This document shows, in pieces, positions 9,560 through 54,890 of a DNA stretch of 64,000 nucleotides (position 1 is its first letter; each line of letters starts with the position of its first letter). The notes beneath the pieces were generated by a model. It had not been told where the DNA came from. It saw only the letters and a program-made list of their open reading frames with translations, and did not search any database. Made by a program: the position numbers and the translations under genes. The stretch comes from Neodothiora populina (lineage: Eukaryota), in NCBI RefSeq assembly GCF_041146345.1, contig NW_027191415.1, positions 1-64,000 of the forward strand, in the 5' to 3' direction.

Positions 9560-10285
9560 GTTAGGTTACGAGTACCAACATCATCGTCATGATAGGCTGC
9601 AGCTGAACATGTGCGAGTCTGAGAATTGGAAATATGGTTACAGGATTTGTAAAGGCTCCGAGCTTCTTCCCATGAATGGAATCGCCGGGAGCATCAAATC
9701 AAAGCGTTGCGAATGATTCGATCCACGCCTGGTGGGTCTTACCATATGATTCAAGGTGAGAGACGGGCACTGGACCGTCGCTTCTCTCGACGCTCTTATG
9801 GATACAGTGATGCAGCTGCATCTTGTCTGGTGAGGGTAAATAGAATCTCTGGAATCTTCGAAAGTAGGGCTCGAGGTCATTACTACCCCATCCGCAGTTG
9901 TCTAGCTTGGTTCAGGCGTCCAGATCCCCAGAACTGGGATATAGGATCGCGCAGAAGTTCATATCGGACGAGCCGCCCAGCATCTTACCTCGCGGGCATG
10001 AGATCTATTTTCCTCGTAAAGCGTCCTAGCCCTTCGGTCAACTGATGGAGTCATACTGAAATCATCGCTGCTCACTTGTGGAGCAGTCATGAAGCACCAG
10101 TCATACTGCTCTTTGCCATATAATTGGGTCATCGAACCTGGCACATCGACAAAAGGATCGTCTTTGTGGTAGGCTCCAGCTTCCACGACAAGGACATTGA
10201 CCTTAGAGTCTTCGCTCAAACAGGAAGCAAGCACCATTCCAGCGGTACCTCTCCCTACTACGATGATCAGGAGTCCTTGATCCAT
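9560..10285 (-). pseudogene. GMC oxidoreductase N-terminal fragment (pseudogene)
   Basis: IIVVGRGTAGMVLASCLSED..VLVVEAG (GGGTAG dinucleotide motif altered to GRGTAG), YDWCF.T.PQ, then GKMLGGSS..N after an intron and a frameshift. Similarity fades within ~700 bp, so the 3' boundary is approximate. Confidence 0.8.
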
Positions 10286-11199
10286 GCTGGTCAAACTCGG
10301 TTGGGTTGTGCATGATTCGGAAGGACTACACTTTAGCGCGACTCTGAAGACAGGTGGGAACGCAGTAATGTTCTGGATATTAAGCTTGCCAGATCAGCAA
10401 GTAAAAGAGCAGCAAGTTACAAGTCGCGATCGGCTGCCTTTTTGTCGATAGCGCTGCTCAAGAAAAGTATTGATTGTCGGCATTTCAAATATATTGCTTG
10501 ACTACGACGTCGCCTGACCGGAGTAAACTGTATAGGCGCTGCTTTATATGAAGTGGTACCCAGTAATCAGAAGCTTGACTTCTTCCGGGCTTTCACACGG
10601 CCTCCTCGTATGCAGTCTCGAGGCAGTTCGAAACACAACCTGATGCAAGGAGATGGCTTCTCTTGCTTGAGAGCAGTGAGCTGGTGGAACAGGTTTCGAC
10701 TACGCCTTAAGCAGACGTGTCAATGAGATGGAAGCCGAGCGCCCGATATGCCATGTTTTTGAGACCAAACGATATTGATATGGTAAGGTTGATGCAGTCT
10801 GCGCAGCCACCCAAGGGTCTTCTGTCAACCCCACTTTGGAAGCTAAATGAGGGTACTTTAATTGATACTTGTACAGGTACTTGTAGCTTGCGTGGAGGAA
10901 TAGTTGTGCACTTTTCTTAAACAAAACAGATTGACAGTCGTCGATACTGTTCCGAAAAGCTACCACAAGCACAGATATCTGCGCCATGACTGCTGCCACC
11001 CACTCCTTACTTGTTGGGATCGAGTTGACTACAAGTTGCAAGAATGCGAATTTGGTTTTATTGGAAATGCTGACATACCCAGGTAGGCCATCGCTATATA
11101 TACTACCCCATCGACTCCTCATGCAAATGTCTATGATCTGGAAGTCGAGAACTTTCGACACGCCACTACCACCTCGAGGCTGTTAAACACGGTCATCGG

Positions 11200-44705: not shown

Positions 44706-46761
44706 CTATGCGGCTGCCTCGACGGCACCAGCAGCGGCTTCGAGCTCCATCATCTTACCCAAAGCCTCTTCCACATCGATACCAGCACCAAACTGCTCAA
44801 TAGCATCTTGAGCTTTGGGGACACCAATAAGTGCTATGCCCCTAGGCACCACGACATCCAAAACTTCGAAGCAGCCAAAGGCAATGACCTGCCTGATCGA
44901 GGGGCAGCTCTTGAAGATTCCAGCCACAACACTGGTGTCGACCGTGCTACAGAAACTGAGATTGATGACTTCAAGCGAAGGATAAACATTTCCGTTGGAA
45001 AAGACATCGAGGAAAGCTTCGAGAGTGATGTGTCGGCAGGATGCAATCTCCAATCTCACGAGCGATGGTCCGGAGTGTTTCATCAAAGCCCTGAAGCCAT
45101 TGGATGCGAGACCTATGGCTTCTTCAGGGCCGACGGGATTGTTGTTGTCGACGTCACGAGTCGAGCTAAAGTCCGCGAATCGCAATGGAGAGTTCTTCCA
45201 ATCGATGAAAAGAGCAGCGTAGGCTGCGTCACTGGACACATCATTCTCTGCGAGTCGGAGTTTACTGAGCTTCAAGCATGAATCTCTGATGACAGCAAGA
45301 ACAGAATCGTCTGCATCAATGTATTTCTCAAGAGACAAGGTGCGCAGACCAGGACCCACAGAGGAAATAAGGCTGGTGAGTGCTGGGGAAGTGCACTCCT
45401 GGGTAGTCTGCAGAGACAGGTGTTCGAGGTTTCGAAGCTTGGAAATCCAGGCGATCGAATCCTGTCCGACGCGACGACACAATTTGAGCTTCAGGCGCTT
45501 CAGATTAGGACAGTCTTCGACCATCTCCTTGACCGTGTTGTCATCAAACGCTGCATCCAACCACTGAAGTTTGACGGTCTCGAGCTGCTCACCGTAGTGC
45601 TTGAAGAGCGTGTGCCACACCTCATTGGTGACCAGATTCGGAGCATACAACTGCAGTGACTTGATCTTGTCACAACGACCCATCATGTACTCGAGTGACT
45701 CGTCCTTGAACTGACAAGCATTGCGAAGAACAAGCTTTTCGATGTTGGGTGCGACGGCGAACATGTTAACGTAATCTTCGACCTCGAGATAGGCAGCGTC
45801 GTGGATGGCTATAGTGTCCAGGTCGGGCCGGACGAACAGTTTGACGGTCCTCGGATTGAGGACGCGCTTCTTCGCAAACAATTCAGACAGTCTCTCCATG
45901 ACAATGGGTGGCATATCGCCCAATTCATCGACGTCCTCGTGGTATTGGGCCACTTTTTCGATACACAGCTGTTGCAAGGACTTCGCCCCACCGACAGCCA
46001 TGCCGTCCAGACGATCGCTCTCCATCTTGCGTCTCTTCTTCCCTGCTGGCTTCTTGCCCTGGGCCTTCTTGTCTGACTTGGCGTCCTTGTCCAGCTCCTT
46101 GCCACACGGTAGACAGAGAAGACCTCCGTCGGGTCCGGTCTTGCTGTAAGGGGTGACTGTAAATCTCTTGTTACAGATCTCGCAGTGCTCGAGTTGTCCA
46201 GGTGCAGGCTGTGACTTTCTATAGATGTTTAGGGCATCTTCATCGTCGTAGTCGGCGTCGCTGTCGTCATCGTCGTCGCTTTGTGGCTTCTTCTTGCCTT
46301 TGGTCGCCTTCTTCTTGCCTTTACCTTTGGCCTTGTTCTTCTTGGCTTTCTTGATGTCCTCTACAGCCTCTGCTTGCTCGCGCTTGCGTTTGCGTGCTTT
46401 CTCTTCGGCCCTTGCGAGAGCTGCAGCACCGGCAGCGGCAGCGACTGCTTCATCTTCGGCTTCTTGATCATTCGCGGCAGTGGAAGGCCCCTCGCCAGCA
46501 TTCCCTTGCTGTTCTGCTTCGGCACGACGACGCTGGTAATCATCACGGATCTGGGCTGCGGAGATGTTGTTTGCCTGTGTAATTTTGTTAGTATGCGCAG
46601 GACCAGAGCAAAAGTGCTGACAGAACTTACAGCAAGGAAATCAGTCAGAGCCGACTGTCTGTTGTTCCCGACATGTTAGCATGTCAGTTCAATCAATTAG
46701 AGGCGCATTGGTCGATGACTGACGGTCCACGGATGCGATTGCCACCACGCCTTCCAGACAT
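44706..46761 (-). CDS. RAD7: Nucleotide excision repair LRR protein Rad7
   Basis: Spliced N-terminus MSGRRGGNRIRGPQSALTDFLAANNISA (two short introns), CEICNKRFTVTPYS Zn motif, KSLQQLCI and RNI-like LRRs. Confidence 0.93.
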
Positions 46762-47664: not shown

Positions 47665-50076
47665 TTAGTGAAATTCTGCCTGCACAAGCCCGTACTGCAC
47701 ACCATCGACCCTGAGCTCAAATACCAAATCTGCACTCTCAATCTTCATTTGCAGCTCAAAATCCAGATTGTCAAAGTCTACTCCTTTACTTGTAGACAGT
47801 CGCGTGAAGAGATGCTTCGGGACGCTTTGTAGGTCTGTCCGTAGGGTACACACTGTGGTCAAGTCCTTCTTGAACGAGTCAGGTGCCTCGTCTGCATCGC
47901 AGGCAATGAGTTCGTCTTCAACAATCAGTGATTGACCCGGTCGGAAGTTTCGCGTGTAGTGGAAAGATATCGGCGTGTCTGGTGATATAGCCGTACCCTG
48001 GAACCACGTTAGTAGGTCGTCTCGCCCTAACTGTGCAGAGTTTCATGGTAGAATTACCTTTGCAATATGCCATTGCATTCGATCGCTCACCATCCATCGC
48101 TCCCACAACGGACTCCAGTATCGATCCTCCATCGGATGCTTGGCCTCGTCAAACACCGTCGCATAGCTGGTGCCATAATGTAGCCTGCTGCGTCGACTCA
48201 GGACCATGTTATCGTCCAGTCCTCTGAGCACAGCGCCGCGCACAACAGCTGTCCAAGCGTACAACGGCTGCATGACTTCGATGTTGCCTGGTCCCGCTAC
48301 CGGTGTGACTGGATGAGTCGGCTTCTCCGTATACGCGGGTGGAGGGGTTGAATTAAAGTGCTTCTTCAGTCGGTCATACAGATAGTTAGACTGACCAAAG
48401 CCACCGACCAAGATGATGCCAGATACGTTGTCACCCTTTGCTCTAATTGCTCCGACCTGACCTTCTAGCAACTTCACGACTTCGCTGATGACTGGATCGA
48501 AAATGTCCATTACTTGTGCCGCCGTCATGATGAGGAACCCGCTATCAAGACCAGCCTCCTCGTCATCAGCTAAACCGGGTAGTGGGACATTGATTTCCTG
48601 GTGATCTTCCTCGTTGAAGTTGCGCTTCACAAATTCCTCGAAGTATCTCAAGCCCATCATCCAGGCCTTGGGCTTGTTTTCTCTCATGTGATCAAATTTC
48701 TCTTGTCCTATTCGTGATCTGACATGGTCTTCGAAGCGATAATTGAGAAAAGCGGACCCACACAGGCCTCCAGTGCCGACTGCGGACTCTTCTACTCGGA
48801 GTGGGAATGCTGAGGTTACTTTGTATGCGATCAGGTCTACAGTACCGCCTCCAGCATCGCAAACCACAAACTACGGTGACATGTCAGCATACGCTATATT
48901 GCGATTGTCAGAAATGAGACTCACATTATCTCCAACATTGACGCTCGCCGCTTGCACCGTCTTGAGGGTGTATATGGCAGCGGCCTCCGGCTCACTGATC
49001 ATCTTGAGTTCCTCTCGATTGCCCATGCCTGCTCGTTCAGCTGCCTGCAGCGTCGCGTTCTTGGCCGAGTCCGACCACACAGCAGGAACCGTGAGGACAA
49101 ATTGTACTTTTGTCATGGCCATGAACGTCTCACCATATCGTCTGGTGAGAGTCTCCATTGTGTGTTTGTACAATTGCGCCAAGTAGTCGGACACACCATC
49201 CATTACGGTCTTGTCGCATTTTCGCAACTGAGCTGCTGTCTCAAGCGGCGAGACGAAGTGCGGTAATTTCTGGTTACGGTCCAGGAACAGCTTTATGCAT
49301 CTCAATCGTGGCTCTTCGGGCTTGAACTGGAATCCCCATCGTATACTGCGCGGTGCGGGCCGGCTGCCTTGCTGCTCGGGTGTGAGGTTGGGGTTTGTGG
49401 TGCCATTTGCGGAGGTGGGTGGTAATTCATAGGCTATCTCCGTGGGTACTTTGTCTGAAGTTATGCCGTTCCCTCCAGGCCAGCTGGAAGTTGTTAGTCG
49501 GCAGTGACTTTTTTGGAGCGGTATTTAGAGGTGTCTTTACGATTTAATTATGTCAATGTCGTCCGGTGTCGCACTATATACAGCAGCCACCCTAATCGCG
49601 AAGTCAGCGTCGAAGGTAGATGTTTACATCTTAGGAGATCTTATTCCTCACCCAGAATACGTGGTACCAAAATCTACACCCACGATAAGTCTATCGGCAT
49701 TGTACCCCTGTGCTATAGAATCCAAAGGACTATTGGTCGTCGTTGGCGTATCCATTCCTGTAGATTCGTTGGTCTCGTTTGTTCCGTCAGACGCGGCAGA
49801 CCCTCGCGTTGTTCCATCAAAGACATGTCCGACTTGCCGAGGAGCCGAGCCCGCAACGAAGTCTGAACCAGCCATTGGCGACGACCCTTTCTCAGGCAAC
49901 GAATTATTGCGTCTGTAGTTGTGTTCTACGATAGTCGCACCACGGCCGAGACTTGAAGAACGAGGTGGGAAGATGACCAGCGGCGCCCGAGCGGGCGCGA
50001 GTCTTTTCTTTCTACTGTTGATGTTGCGCTCCGCACCTTCGTATGGCGTCAAAACTACGACCTTGGCGACTTGCAT
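47665..50076 (-). CDS. Atypical Hsp70 of the HSPA12-like fungal class (multi-exon; start at 50076 or 49875)
   Basis: IVGVDFGTTYSG, WPGGNGITSDKVPT, FVLTVPAVWSD, ISEPEAAA, VVCDAGGGTVD, ILVGGFGQS, AVVRGA; lacks the canonical lid/EEVD; four GT-AG introns join the ORF pieces. Confidence 0.92.
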
Positions 50077-51615
50077 TCGGAAAGCGAGAAAGGGTAGAAA
50101 CTAGATCTACCCTGTTCGCCTCATGTGGAAAAATGAATGGAGCAGGGGTAGGGCGGAGCTGAATGGGGCAAGGCAGCAGATAGAGGCGGGAGTCTCTGCC
50201 TGGGATTGTCTGCTTCGTTCGGACCTTTTGACTTTCTCGGACTACTCTTCTTCGACGGCGGTTGTCGCAGATGTCGATATGGTGATACAAGTTCACGCAG
50301 CGCTTTTGTCACGTTTGACACCACTCGCCAGGCACTAAGCCTAGAAGCAGCACCTTTGTATTATATCATCTGTGATCGAGCAGAGAGGGATGGCCTAAAC
50401 ACGGAGTCCGGATCATCGTTTACATGCATCAATATTTGGGCCTCCCTTTTTCCCAACTGAGTAAAGCCTTAAAAGTGACCATGTCTCGGAGGATTGACTT
50501 GTCGGGCAGAATGACATAGCATCACCATATAATCGTGGTAGGGTCGGATACTTTGCTCGTCTTCTACCACGGTACCGGACGATTTGACAGCCCAGAGACG
50601 CATGGGTAAGGTATGCGGGGTACATACGGATAATCATCCGCTGCTTTGCGCCAACTTCGTTGCATGTTGATTACAGCAATGTTCAACAAGATACTTTGAC
50701 TGTAGATTGCCCTGCCAAGCAATCCTTCTCACTCTAGATCTCGGGTTTCTTTGGGGTCCCGGACTTTATTTTGACCACAAGCTTGAATCGGATACCCGAA
50801 CATCTCTAACCTTGGATTGGTTTCACTTCAGAGGTACCACGTTTCCAGTGATCCTTTTGACACTCGTCGAAAGGCACGTGCTATACAAGGTCGTCGTACA
50901 GCCTGCTTGGGGGGGATGACAATAGTACAGTACTATCGTGCGTCCCCCCGAAAGTGTGCATGAGGTGAGTAGAAACCTTTTTCTCACATGTCTGCAGCCC
51001 ATGTAGCGACAAAAAGCAGAAACGTGAAGGATGGTGATCCTTGGATTGAACCCTAAGAATGAGAAAGGTCACTCTGACAAGAGACTTTCTCTCCATTACC
51101 TCAATCGGGCTCAGCACCGGACAAAAGACGAACAGATACCATCGCGCCCGTTACATACTTTTCTTCACGAATGCACTAGTCGGGCTCACACTTTCTCGGG
51201 AACGGATTGGGAACTCTCTATCGCTGTCGTTGCTAGAAAAGAAGCAGATCTGCAAATGAATAGACTTTTTTGGCTATTTTGGAGTAGTTGCTGGAAAGAG
51301 ACACAGAAAGAAAGGTTGCTGTTACTATTCTGGCAGTGTGGACCGCGTCGAGTGAGGTGGCTGTTATGAAACTCGGACGGTGAGTCGTAGCAGAGGTAAG
51401 GCAGTGAGCATGACCTAGTGTGGTTCCAAAATAGGTTTTCCACGTTCAGATGTGATGACGGTAAGTGATAGTCGAGCTCAAATCAATACGTTTATCTCTA
51501 TGCAAAACATTCATCTGTACCAAAGGCGATATCGAGTTGACCTCTGAAATCCTCGTCGATCTATATCCATCCATAAATTCAGCTACCCAAGCAAAACAAT
51601 AAAGAGGAAAGAAAA

Positions 51616-53211
51616 ATGTCACAGCCATCAACAACGAAAAGACGAGTCTCCCATCTAGTAGGCCAATTCGAACAACTAGCCGCAGCGATATACCCGCTCG
51701 AAAGCCCATGGGCATCATTATCTTCTTGATCGGCATCGGCATCGGCATCATCTGCAGCAACGTCAGATTCGTCATCGTCAACATATTCACGACCAGACTC
51801 GAGTACCAGTTCAGCAGAAGAGCCAGATATTCTAAAGATCACATCGCCTCTGACGAGAGAGGATCGACCATCCGTTTTCTGCTCACCCAGCAGTAATGGA
51901 AGCAGCAACGACACAAAGAACAAATCAGCAATAAGATTCTCCTCTCCGTATCCGGTGCTAAGAACAAATGTCGACTCCCCAAGTACCGCTTATCCAACCC
52001 CGATCACTCAGAATAAAACCAGACCAGCGGCAGCATGCACGTACAAAGGCCCAGCTCCCGCGCCAGCACCATCTACGAAACCCGATATAAACAATCAGCG
52101 GCAGCAGCAAATCAGCGACGGAGACATCAGAGACAGAGTCACGCGATTAGCGAACGAGGCTCAGAACTGGGTCGTGGCGACTTTTAGACGAGTCAATATT
52201 GGTGAGTGAGGTCTTGTACCTCTCCTTTCTCTCTCAATCTCTCTTGGCTTGGACCTTTAGTCGTTGGTCTGGTTCTGTATGCTCCGGTCTGGGTCTTTGG
52301 TAGTACCAGAAGAGAAGACTCACATGCATGAAAGGATCAATGCTGAGATAGTAAATGCTGACTATCGATCTACAGAATCTCTCCGCAAATCATACAAGCA
52401 GAGTTTAGAGACGAGCTTACCTGCTTCACAACCACATGAGATCGATATGCTTTTGGCTGCGTACTCCCACATTGACAATACGAACAAACTATATGTGTTA
52501 CAGCACACGTTGATGCTCTTCATAATGCAAATATTCGAAGAGAGTGGTTTCTTTGGTTTACCAGTGGAGCTATACAAACTAAGGGAAGTGATGGAGTTTC
52601 TTGATGGTGACTTTTTGTCTCTCATGCCCATGTCTCTACAGAAACCAGCTGATAGATCAATCCAGTTCCGACTGCAGCGTATAACGAGTGGCGTTCGCAC
52701 ACGTTCTGGTACACGCTGAACGCAACAGGAAATGTTCAGGAAACAGTCCATCAAGCTACAGAAAACGGAATGCAGGAATTGAGTACTGAGATGTCCGGGA
52801 GTCTGTCCACGATCGCCGGCTTGGAATTGGACGAAAATCGAATCGCATGCTTGAGCAAAGTGATCGACAATGCTGTCGCTCTTGGCCGTACGTTAAGTTT
52901 ACAGCGTGCCAGATACGTGTTCGTCATGCCGGAGCCGAGTGGAAACCTGGATCTACCATTTGATGAGGAGTTGATGGAGGATGTCTTTGGGGATGAAGAC
53001 TCGAATGACCGACTGGTTAGGTGCGTAGCTTTCCCAGCACTGCTCAAATATGGTGATGAGCTTGGAGATGACGTAAGTAGTCGATCGAATGCATGCTTCA
53101 AGATAAGCCACTGACTTCTCGCAGATGCATCTGAATAATGTCATTGTGAAAGCAAAGGTCTTTTGCTACACTGTCGAGGGATGCAAGATGAGCGATGTTT
53201 CTGCGAGTTGA
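51616..53211 (+). CDS. Uncharacterised protein divergent from the Hsp70, with a GrpE-like C-terminus; in-frame TGA at 51727-51729 (exons 51616-52201, 52376-52606, 52666-53072, 53125-53211)
   Basis: Three GT-AG introns with branch sites join four segments in frame: ISDGDIRDRVTRLANEAQNWV; YNEWRSHT; LSKVIDNAVALGRTLSLQRARY; PFDEELMED...VRCVAFPALLKYGDELGDD...VIVKAKVFC. The 5' structure is uncertain because of the stop. Confidence 0.75.
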
Positions 53212-53216
53212 TCCTC

Positions 53217-54210
53217 TCAGAATGTATTTTCCCTCGTGCGTGGTAGCAGTGGGCTTATCAGGGGCTTTTCCGCAATCACAACAGGCTCAGACTTGCTCGG
53301 AGAATGATGCTGCTTGCTGAGCTTAGACTTCTCGACTTCATCGGGAAGCGAAGTCTCAGTACCCTGATCGGAGTGTGGCTGCTCGACCATTGTTGCCTCA
53401 TATTCCTCCCGTATTCCACGACTTACATCATCGACGCGCTCCGACAGCCAGGCGTTCTCGCGAATAAGAAGCGCGATGGGTGTGAGCTGTGGTTCCAGCT
53501 CCCACATATTGTGGCGTGGGTCGGTACGGTGAAGCTGCAAGAATGGGTGATAGACATGGGTGGAGTAGATGCCCGACAGTTCGCGAAAGACAGAGGCTTC
53601 ACGGCCCGTGGGCTTGTGGATAGAGCTGCAAGAGCACATTCAGTGAGAATACAAGTAGCAAATAAATGATATGGACACAGATAGAAACTTACTCCATAAT
53701 CTCGGTCCATCTCAGGGTAGTTGACTCAAGCTCCGCCCGATCCACAGATATAGGAGAAGGCAGATGACGGACTGTTTCGCGTAGTTCCAGCATACGCCTC
53801 TTCAGATACTCAACGACTTGCTCAAGACGAAAATGAATTTCTTCTGCATAGACCATGACTTTCTTCTTGATATCCTGATTCAGAAGATAAGTAGATGGGA
53901 ACAAATACTTGCCGATCTCGACAACCATCAAGACAATGTCGCGCATTCTACGTTTGAAGTGGCGGACAAGACTGCAATGCTTCAGGTATTCCAGCAGCGG
54001 CTTGTAAGGCTCTCGAAGCTGGGATGGATCGGGCTCGGCGTCGAGATAGAAAGAAAGAAAGGCCTCGGAATTTGTCTCAAGCTCGTCGGCGTGTATGAAA
54101 GGGTGTGACATGTTACTGGGCGTGGGAGATGCGCGAGGTGGTATGACAGTCGGAGAGCCGACGAGCGTGGTGTCACGCGAATGTATGAACGGGGTTTCTT
54201 CAGATGCCAT
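53217..54210 (-). CDS. Hypothetical protein (exons 54210-53693, 53625-53217)
   Basis: The GTAAGT...CAG intron joins two ORFs in frame (TEIMD SIHKP); helical core; no family recognised. Confidence 0.72.
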
Positions 54211-54890
54211 GGTTGAAGGAAGGAAGGAGCAATACAGCACGATGTAATGTAATTCAGGTAGTCGCAAAATCGAGCATTTCCAGGTACGTGAAGGCGGCGT
54301 ACACGAAGGCTAGGCAGATTCAAATAGTTGATCCGTCAGCAGGTTAGCGATTCTTAAGATTGGACGTGGAGAATGAGATAAAGTGCCAGGTTAAGACGAC
54401 TGAAAGGGTGATGGTCGCAAAGACAAGACGGCAAAAGGAAAGTTGTGCTACGGGCAACCGCGTGAAAGTGAGGAAGCGCGTGTTCTCTTGAGGCAACACA
54501 GATGCGGAGATAGAAGGCGACAGGAGGTTGTCGAGGTTGACATTGTTTGCTTGACTTGCACATGCGACTCAAGATCACTCGTGCTATACGGAACACAATC
54601 TACAGACCTATTGACAGAAGAAATGTGCCGAGCTCAATGACACCGGTACACCATGGACTTTCGTTTCCGACAGTGGACCGGCAATAAGTGCCAAAGAGCA
54701 CGACAGCGCCTGAACTAGAGTCCCAGAAGCCAGGAGAACAAGACGTTCAACCTGAAGGGCGATGCTGTTCAGACTTTCGATCTGCGCCTACAGACTAATT
54801 CGCAGGCCATAGTGCTAAGGGCGTGAGAACTTAAGAAGAGGCGGTGATGATGGTATGAAGAGGTGATGTAGAAGAGGAGGGGGGATGTGT

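Follow-up and report, generated by a model that had tools for sequence, protein, structure and literature searches.

A conserved pairing of an HSPA12-type Hsp70 gene with a gene of a coiled-coil protein family in Neodothiora populina, and the partner as a candidate cofactor with a possibly GrpE-like tail

Hsp70-type ATPases of the HSPA12 type occur in animals, fungi, protists and bacteria, and we know of no established cofactors or mechanism for them. The 64,000-nt stretch of Neodothiora populina DNA analyzed here (RefSeq assembly GCF_041146345.1, contig NW_027191415.1, positions 1 to 64,000 of the forward strand; hereafter the window) carries such a gene (47665..50076, minus strand) head-to-head with a gene of a different kind (51616-53211, plus strand; hereafter the partner), and the question raised by this locus is whether the partner encodes a dedicated cofactor of the neighboring ATPase. 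A model-made reading of the letters alone (the sequence-only reading) had proposed exactly this, namely a divergent protein of GrpE fold serving as the private nucleotide-exchange factor or client adaptor of a lidless Hsp70. Our analyses partly support that interpretation, as a plausible dedicated-cofactor hypothesis; its support comes from (i) the conserved linkage of the two genes and (ii) a weak, consistent structural resemblance. A conserved neighbor with a predicted GrpE-like shape provides a concrete and cheaply testable cofactor hypothesis for an HSPA12-type Hsp70.

The Hsp70-like gene is composed of five exons (50076-49652, 49591-49541, 49483-48925, 48870-48058 and 47997-47665; stop codon TAA at 47667-47665) separated by four GT..AG introns of 60, 57, 54, and 60 nt, respectively. 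The rebuilt translation (726 aa) is identical, letter for letter, to the deposited N. populina protein P0150 (locus tag AAFC00_006111). A 2,797-nt contig of run X2 is spliced at both 5' introns, and since it skips intron 1 and runs on into exon 3, the gene is transcribed and spliced as modeled, with a transcript extending at the 5' end at least to position 50360. Run X2 (region on the window 49541-50360) is labeled "DNA?"; because its Hsp70 contig is spliced, the run, which goes back to the sample that also gave the probable source run of the assembly, holds sequence derived from RNA. The X2 contigs include none over the partner gene, a gap that says nothing about partner expression.

The Pfam HSP70 profile (PF00012) matches P0150 with 49.1 bits (cut-off 20.6) at residues 277-519, covering only profile positions 126-352 of 599, and solved Hsp70 nucleotide-binding domains in the PDB match it with E-values of about 1e-8 (best 1.5e-8), these matches ending near chain residue 383, inside the nucleotide-binding domain. 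The HscA and DnaK models score it at E 1e-13 to 1e-15, well short of their own cut-offs, and the C-terminal ~200 residues are assigned by precomputed annotation to PF27033, a different family from HSP70. Judged by these matches, P0150 contains an Hsp70/actin-fold nucleotide-binding domain and lacks a canonical substrate-binding domain or lid, as the sequence-only reading had it. Orthologues are named "heat shock protein 12A," "12B" or "12A-like" by their sources, and the assignment to HSPA12 rather than to another Hsp70 clade follows these source-given names only. HSPA12A and HSPA12B likewise combine an Hsp70 nucleotide-binding domain with the lack of a canonical substrate-binding domain, but the fungal orthologue group has a C-terminal domain of its own (PF27033). 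Orthologues share 67–80% identity across Dothideo-, Sordario-, Leotio- and Lecanoromycetes, the window carries one copy each of the Hsp70 gene and the partner, and the Hsp70 gene is slowly evolving and probably single-copy. Among bacteria, the fungal Hsp70 profile matched none of 401 Pseudomonadota genomes at E 1e-25 or 1e-17; the partner profile gave two weak matches in the same 401 genomes (E 8e-4 and 6e-3), placed inside open reading frames (ORFs) of 750–813 aa. The literature search returned nothing on the function of the fungal orthologue group, and for HSPA12 in filamentous fungi a single, unrelated co-mention.

The partner gene was reconstructed on the plus strand with four exons, in agreement with the earlier reading, and with GT..AG introns of 174, 59, and 52 nt. 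Exon 1 (51616-52201) encodes an N-terminal motif (RRVSHLVGQFEQL), an in-frame TGA codon, a Ser/Thr/Pro-rich stretch and, at its end, a conserved "QNWV..FRR" helix. Exon 2 (52376-52606) encodes a helical region with the conserved pattern "KL..Q......M.IF.E..FGLP," and is matched at 52438-52593 in tblastn searches with the family members P0003, P0009, and P0017. Exon 3 (52666-53072) carries a helix hairpin and most of a C-terminal beta domain (FD..MED, V.C..FP.L.K.GDE), whose last two strands (NVIVKAKVFC) are encoded by exon 4 (53125-53211; stop codon TGA at 53209-53211). The translation contains the three motifs quoted previously, PFDEELMED, VRCVAFPALLKYG and NVIVKAKVFC. Both the N-terminal motif and the position of the exon 1 end are conserved at locus L135, which holds the closest relative found. 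The deposited model (P0001, AAFC00_006112; 52591-52606 + 52678-53072 + 53125-53211, plus strand) comprises the C-terminal part only and starts at ATG 52591; it uses the acceptor at 52678 instead of 52666, and retains all seven invariant or near-invariant positions of the family. The start codons of the two genes lie 1,539 nt apart, the divergent upstream region being 50077..51615, which bears out the head-to-head layout with about 1.5 kb of shared upstream DNA.

In a phmmer search with partner exon 3 against 1.84 billion representatives (E up to 1e-3), 149 proteins were matched. Three of these were left out of the family: P0005 and P0098, bacterial repeat proteins according to Pfam, and P0146 (1,781 aa, no Pfam match). 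The remaining relatives look ascomycete by name where names are given. Full-length members have 365–720 aa and a common layout. A disordered N-terminus with an "IA.LRAAFE"-type motif leads into a coiled coil and a conserved "QNWVVNNFRR" helix; a helical region follows, and the proteins end with a domain of the pattern "FD..MED ... V.C..FP.V.K.GDE.G.N ... NV..KAKVLC." Across the 101 members scanned, the conserved part falls under no Pfam family. By these comparisons the partner belongs to a fast-evolving family of Pezizomycotina that has no Pfam name, with about 30–45% identity where the Hsp70 keeps 70–80%. The family N-termini read as free of organellar presequence-like features, in line with the earlier statement that no targeting peptide is evident. 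A word-index search with exon 3 returned 311 candidates, none of which scored. The UniRef name "involucrin repeat protein," carried within the family, was rejected; papers under this name concern a different protein, the giant Woronin-body tether (PMC8227032). Two members have distinctive annotations: P0061 carries an additional N-terminal AKAP7-type 2',5' RNA ligase-like (2H phosphoesterase) domain (E 1.1e-18), and P0040 was named "activating signal cointegrator complex subunit 1" by the Joint Genome Institute.

The pairing of the two genes is conserved, at least in Dothideomycetes. By adjacent locus tags or by longest contigs of the same size, 11 partner/Hsp70 pairs were recovered, nine from the 30 partner clusters looked up and two from the four matches of a profile search with the family alignment A1 (these four among 8,000 candidates, a set crowded by coiled-coil words). 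Consecutive locus tags were found in four Dothideomycetes: Neodothiora (AAFC00_006112/6111), Elasticomyces elasticus (LTR50_004424/4425), Dothistroma septosporum (DOTSEDRAFT_68492/68491) and Neophaeotheca triangularis (MBLNU230_g8460/g8459). In seven more couples, the longest contigs of both proteins have identical sizes (5903, 7649, 8135, 11759, 117914, 532707, and 984342), and four of these contigs are just 5.9–11.8 kb long. Because 120 of the 815 Hsp70 matches were compared, 11 is a lower bound, and for the same reason the unmatched Aureobasidium, Sclerotinia, Verticillium, Sodiomyces, Leptodophora and Extremus are uninformative. The statement in the sequence-only reading that similar pairs occur in other filamentous ascomycetes is borne out by these pairs: homologues of the partner adjoin orthologues of the window Hsp70.

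Metagenomic sequences extend this picture. A search with a 14-sequence alignment located 21 metagenome loci with the partner (L117 duplicating L116). Contig L116 has the same head-to-head layout as the window. Contig L120, by its sequence presumably from a Sordariomycete- or Leotiomycete-like fungus (Scytalidium and Trichoderma proteins are the nearest to its Hsp70), carries an intronless partner gene and the Hsp70 gene 5 kb apart in convergent orientation, and shares with the entire 64-kb window these two genes only. This contig is the best single argument for selected linkage. As a separate observation, another contig of the same metagenome, L129, carries (9953-10524) the C-terminal part of the partner only, with 93% DNA identity to L120 (762-1333) and unrelated upstream sequence, and may represent a partial duplicate or a domain-swapped paralogue.

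What kind of protein the partner might be was approached through structure prediction. The AlphaFold2 model of P0001 (predicted local distance difference test, pLDDT, 91.9) opens with three helices, after which six or seven strands occupy residues 84-153, and that of the full-length relative P0009 (pLDDT 90.5) an 84-residue helix (H22-105), seven helices and strands at 292-361. A Foldseek search of the P0001 model against the PDB returned nothing at E up to 1e-3; above this threshold the two leading hits are GrpE (E 0.054 and 0.17), which is represented by six entries among the top 37. In VIA-align comparisons of the partner model the highest scores are those of helix hairpins, and only in the GrpE rows does the alignment continue into the beta domain; among solved chains, none but those of GrpE cover the model of the partner in full. 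The wide VIA-align searches were dominated by single long helices or helix hairpins and told little of the beta domain. The third program, the Atlas search, worked from a model of P0001 of its own making, covering residues 56-165. Behind the fungal family, it placed a Basidiomycota GTPase-linked cluster (template modeling score, TM, 0.61), the plant DUF641/GIL1_IRKI_C domain (TM 0.61, 90 residues aligned), MIEAP (TM 0.53, 84 aligned) and bacterial GrpE (TM 0.49, 70 aligned); both the plant domain and MIEAP remain under the naming bar. The Basidiomycota proteins of this cluster, with a similar predicted tail, carry an MMR_HSR1 GTPase domain. Language-model features, which give leads only, name GIL1_IRKI_C (0.81–0.82) and MIEAP (0.79–0.80) as the nearest named clusters, and the family or clan is common to no more than 3 to 5 of the ten top named matches for GIL1/IRKI.

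Every structural score obtained for these predicted models stays below what is usually required to call a fold shared. The answer nevertheless agrees between three programs and between two independently made models. We consider it probable that the tail of the partner has a fold of the MIEAP/GIL1-IRKI type, and a shared GrpE-type fold is, on these models, slightly favored. The comparison with GrpE and MIEAP that had been suggested gave a sub-threshold likeness of predicted structure to both, and no significant hhalign result for GrpE. Of the claim of a divergent GrpE fold, the part that stood is the resemblance of the predicted tail to GrpE and MIEAP; the sequence and profile comparisons gave no significant similarity, and the structural scores fell under the accepted bars.

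Three known systems are relevant for comparison. With GrpE/Mge1/GRPEL1 (PF01025), the partner family, as modeled, shares (i) the order of parts, from a long N-terminal helix through further helices to a small C-terminal beta domain, (ii) an F-D-x-x-x-[MH]-E-[DA] turn and a terminal A-x-V strand at matching places, and (iii) being encoded next to, or working with, an Hsp70-type ATPase. The differences are a far larger helical part (seven helices in the P0009 model vs. two in GrpE), the lack of the long helix in the window copy, the lack of significant sequence or profile similarity across the family, and the type of the adjoining ATPase, which is HSPA12-type here and DnaK-type for GrpE. The MIEAP domain (PF16026; SPATA18/Mieap of animals, with the domain also present in Mucoromycota) shares the combination of a coiled coil with a C-terminal alpha+beta domain; hmmscan with thresholds of E 0.1 or 10 found PF16026 in 0 of the 101 members. 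Mieap is described as a condensate-forming, cardiolipin-related protein (PMC10845071). The plant DUF641/GIL1-IRKI proteins (PF04859 + PF24994) provide the best structural look-alike outside fungi, and belong to a plant family without a known Hsp70 link; PF24994 likewise matched none of the 101 members in hmmscan. The motif style of GIL1/IRKI is one that we take to be similar to that of the partner family. Judged by the models, both the architecture and the tail of the partner seem closer to MIEAP and to the GIL1/IRKI C-terminal domain than to GrpE.

How a cofactor of this build might work can be outlined. The ATPase has a nucleotide-binding domain followed by a C-terminal domain specific to its family, and neither the canonical substrate-binding domain nor a lid. 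In the partner family, a disordered N-terminus bearing a short conserved motif is joined by a long single helix, probably a coiled-coil stalk, to a helical domain; a small beta domain is predicted at the C-terminal end. The partner would dimerize through the stalk and use the helix hairpin together with the beta domain to dock on the neighboring Hsp70, at its ATPase domain, where it could act as a GrpE-style nucleotide-exchange factor or as an adaptor, tuning the nucleotide cycle or the location of the Hsp70. That the partner is a private cofactor of this kind, exchange factor or adaptor, is the reading that we tentatively prefer on the basis of the linkage and the models, at somewhat less than even confidence. 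If binding to the Hsp70 failed, what would be left is an ordinary syntenic pair and a new fungal family.

A number of results weigh against a cofactor role, and on the side of GrpE these are the sequence-level tests, the only tests that contradict the GrpE-cofactor reading. The cut-off of PF01025 (25.8 bits) was reached by none of the 101 family members; the best score, one of 58 short members, belongs to P0051 (15.7 bits, E 0.013, profile positions 53-141, collinear), and neither the three partner exon pieces of the window nor P0001 gave a PF01025 match. The hhalign probabilities for GrpE are 0.1–1%: the family C-terminal alignment gave 0.1% against E. coli GrpE and 0.3% (E 0.19, 16 columns) against a 30-sequence proteobacterial GrpE alignment, and the alignment A1 gave 1%, within the coiled coil. 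The 16 columns place FD..MED on FDP..HQA of GrpE, a correspondence that is not significant. A GrpE hidden Markov model scored 142 real C-termini (median −0.6, top 7.9) no better than shuffled (median −1.4, top 9.8) or reversed (median −0.9, top 9.2) controls. Since a scan of bacterial contigs with E. coli GrpE gave only enterobacterial copies of 86–99% identity, the diverse GrpE set was drawn by a family search. A PDB profile search with A1 was rejected as a source of candidates, its matches being coiled-coil matches only (profile positions 50-219), including GrpE 1dkg_A (E 0.22) in its long helix.

On the side of the linkage, contig L116 and the window share at least five genes in collinear order, for which reason adjacency within Dothideomycetes could be ordinary microsynteny, and a part (53397-53633) of the small gene directly downstream of the partner is also conserved beside partner homologues at L116, L117, L118, L124, and L135. 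The neighborhood survey proposed earlier thus had a mixed outcome: it yielded the 11 linked pairs and L120, but also family members with no Hsp70 nearby (within 10 kb on both sides at L134 and 10 kb upstream at L129) and, in Cryomyces minteri, partner and Hsp70 on different small contigs. The cross-class evidence, moreover, is the single contig L120, in which the orientation differs and an extra ORF lies between the genes. These observations would fit two mere neighbors, the partner being a MIEAP/GIL1-IRKI-like coiled-coil scaffold, involved for example in organelle or condensate organization and unrelated to the Hsp70, and the adjacency an inherited one, perhaps with a shared bidirectional promoter. 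The order of the look-alikes, with DUF641/GIL1_IRKI_C and MIEAP ahead of GrpE, and the agreeing language-model neighbors speak for such a scaffold; however, L120 retains the two genes within 5 kb after all other window genes are gone, 11 pairs emerged from a small part of the Hsp70 matches, and solved GrpE chains alone cover the whole partner model. We regard the explanation by mere neighborhood as a distinct possibility, although a rather doubtful one.

The private-cofactor reading can also be varied in its biological setting or widened in its evolutionary scope. The sequence-only reading had allowed for a stress-induced or non-self/conflict system. The fast evolution of the partner relative to the Hsp70 would suit it, but the Hsp70 is a single conserved orthologue group and, with 67–80% identity kept over four classes of fungi, is unlikely to be a conflict gene; PADLOC assigned no family to P0150 or P0001, and its matches for the full-length partners P0008 and P0009 are confined to coiled-coil regions of JetC, ZorA and similar models, which is noise. 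The window, furthermore, has one copy of each gene, and no three-unit heat-shock element was found in the shared upstream region (50077-51615; window scan, 24 matches vs. 18.2 expected). We consider a stress or conflict system, the alternative in the earlier proposal, very improbable. In the widest form, the Pezizomycotina family, MIEAP (animals and Mucoromycota), the GIL1/IRKI domain and GrpE would all descend from one ancient GrpE-type module, with the cytosolic members acting as exchange factors or adaptors of HSPA12-type Hsp70s. This we hold to be improbable; if true, it would give the first mechanistic handle on HSPA12A/B, Mieap/SPATA18 and the plant DUF641 proteins together. Predicted structure does tentatively tie the fungal partner family to the MIEAP and GIL1/IRKI domains, and if the GrpE link is true as well, this would suggest that Mieap and the plant DUF641 proteins act through an Hsp70-type ATPase. 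Among animals, HSPA12 genes are most expanded in molluscs, and the MIEAP clusters of the Atlas are commonest in molluscs. The links between HSPA12, the partner, GrpE, MIEAP and GIL1/IRKI were not found in the literature searched: among the papers listed, nothing joined HSPA12 with Mieap beyond a co-listing in mussel proteomics, and no work connected GrpE, Mieap and DUF641/GIL1, the sole co-mention of GrpE and Mieap being off-subject by its title.

A further point against a working two-gene system concerns the partner copy of this genome, which has an in-frame stop and no stalk, two features overlooked by the earlier reading. The TGA lies at codon 38 of exon 1 (51727..51729, plus strand). Run X1, possibly the source of the assembly, is the only one to cover it, at a word depth of 28 and with no letter differing. 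None of the 52 in-frame GT/GC..AG combinations that would remove the TGA has a consensus donor; only two GT donor sites are available for such introns, and both cut into the conserved N-terminal motif. At L135, whose partner is 45% identical in exon 3, exon 1 is uninterrupted; it begins with the N-terminal motif, continues as a long coiled coil and closes at the conserved exon end, matching the window copy at both ends; where L135 has the coiled coil, the window copy has about 125 Ser/Thr/Pro-rich residues of similar length (within the low-complexity stretch 51730-52100), which are either a diverged remnant of the coiled coil or its replacement. The "long amphipathic helices" ascribed to the partner therefore belong more to the family, as the L135 coiled coil illustrates, than to the window copy.

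Because the stalk is lost and codon 38 is TGA, the window copy appears impaired and may be weakened, truncated or inactivated of late. In the extreme case it would be a pseudogene or remnant from which no full-length protein is made, leaving the local "module" half alive. The missing credible intron, the low-complexity sequence in place of the coiled coil of L135 and 76 aligned relatives, and the model of the depositors, only 165 aa long, all point in this direction. Against it, the TGA is followed by 157 stop-free codons, the probability of which we estimate at about 5e-4 if 3 of 64 codons are stops. The three splice sites downstream are all preserved, as is each near-invariant residue of the C-terminal domain; read-through, an internal start (as in the deposited model, ATG 52591) or an assembly error are possible alternatives. 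The copy is either still partly functional or was damaged only recently, and we judge a pseudogene unlikely.

The surroundings of the pair were also inspected. The upstream region 50077-51615 showed no tblastx conservation against the syntenic contig L116. At the 3' end of the Hsp70 gene, a gene on the minus strand (44709-46640) encodes a Rad7/Rhp7-type DNA-repair F-box/leucine-rich repeat protein (zf_Tbcl_Rhp7, E 1.6e-19), which is syntenic in L116 and absent from L120. The small gene downstream of the partner (53217-54309, minus strand) is represented by the ORF pieces 53217-53639 and 53689-54309, and has no Pfam match. Finally, two runs of another study, X3 and X4 ("organism B"), each contain three short contigs of 153–202 nt, corresponding to 50425-50577, 51753-51954, and 52930-53093, with 0–1 differences to the window and nothing in between; these contigs possibly reflect a low-coverage presence of the same species.

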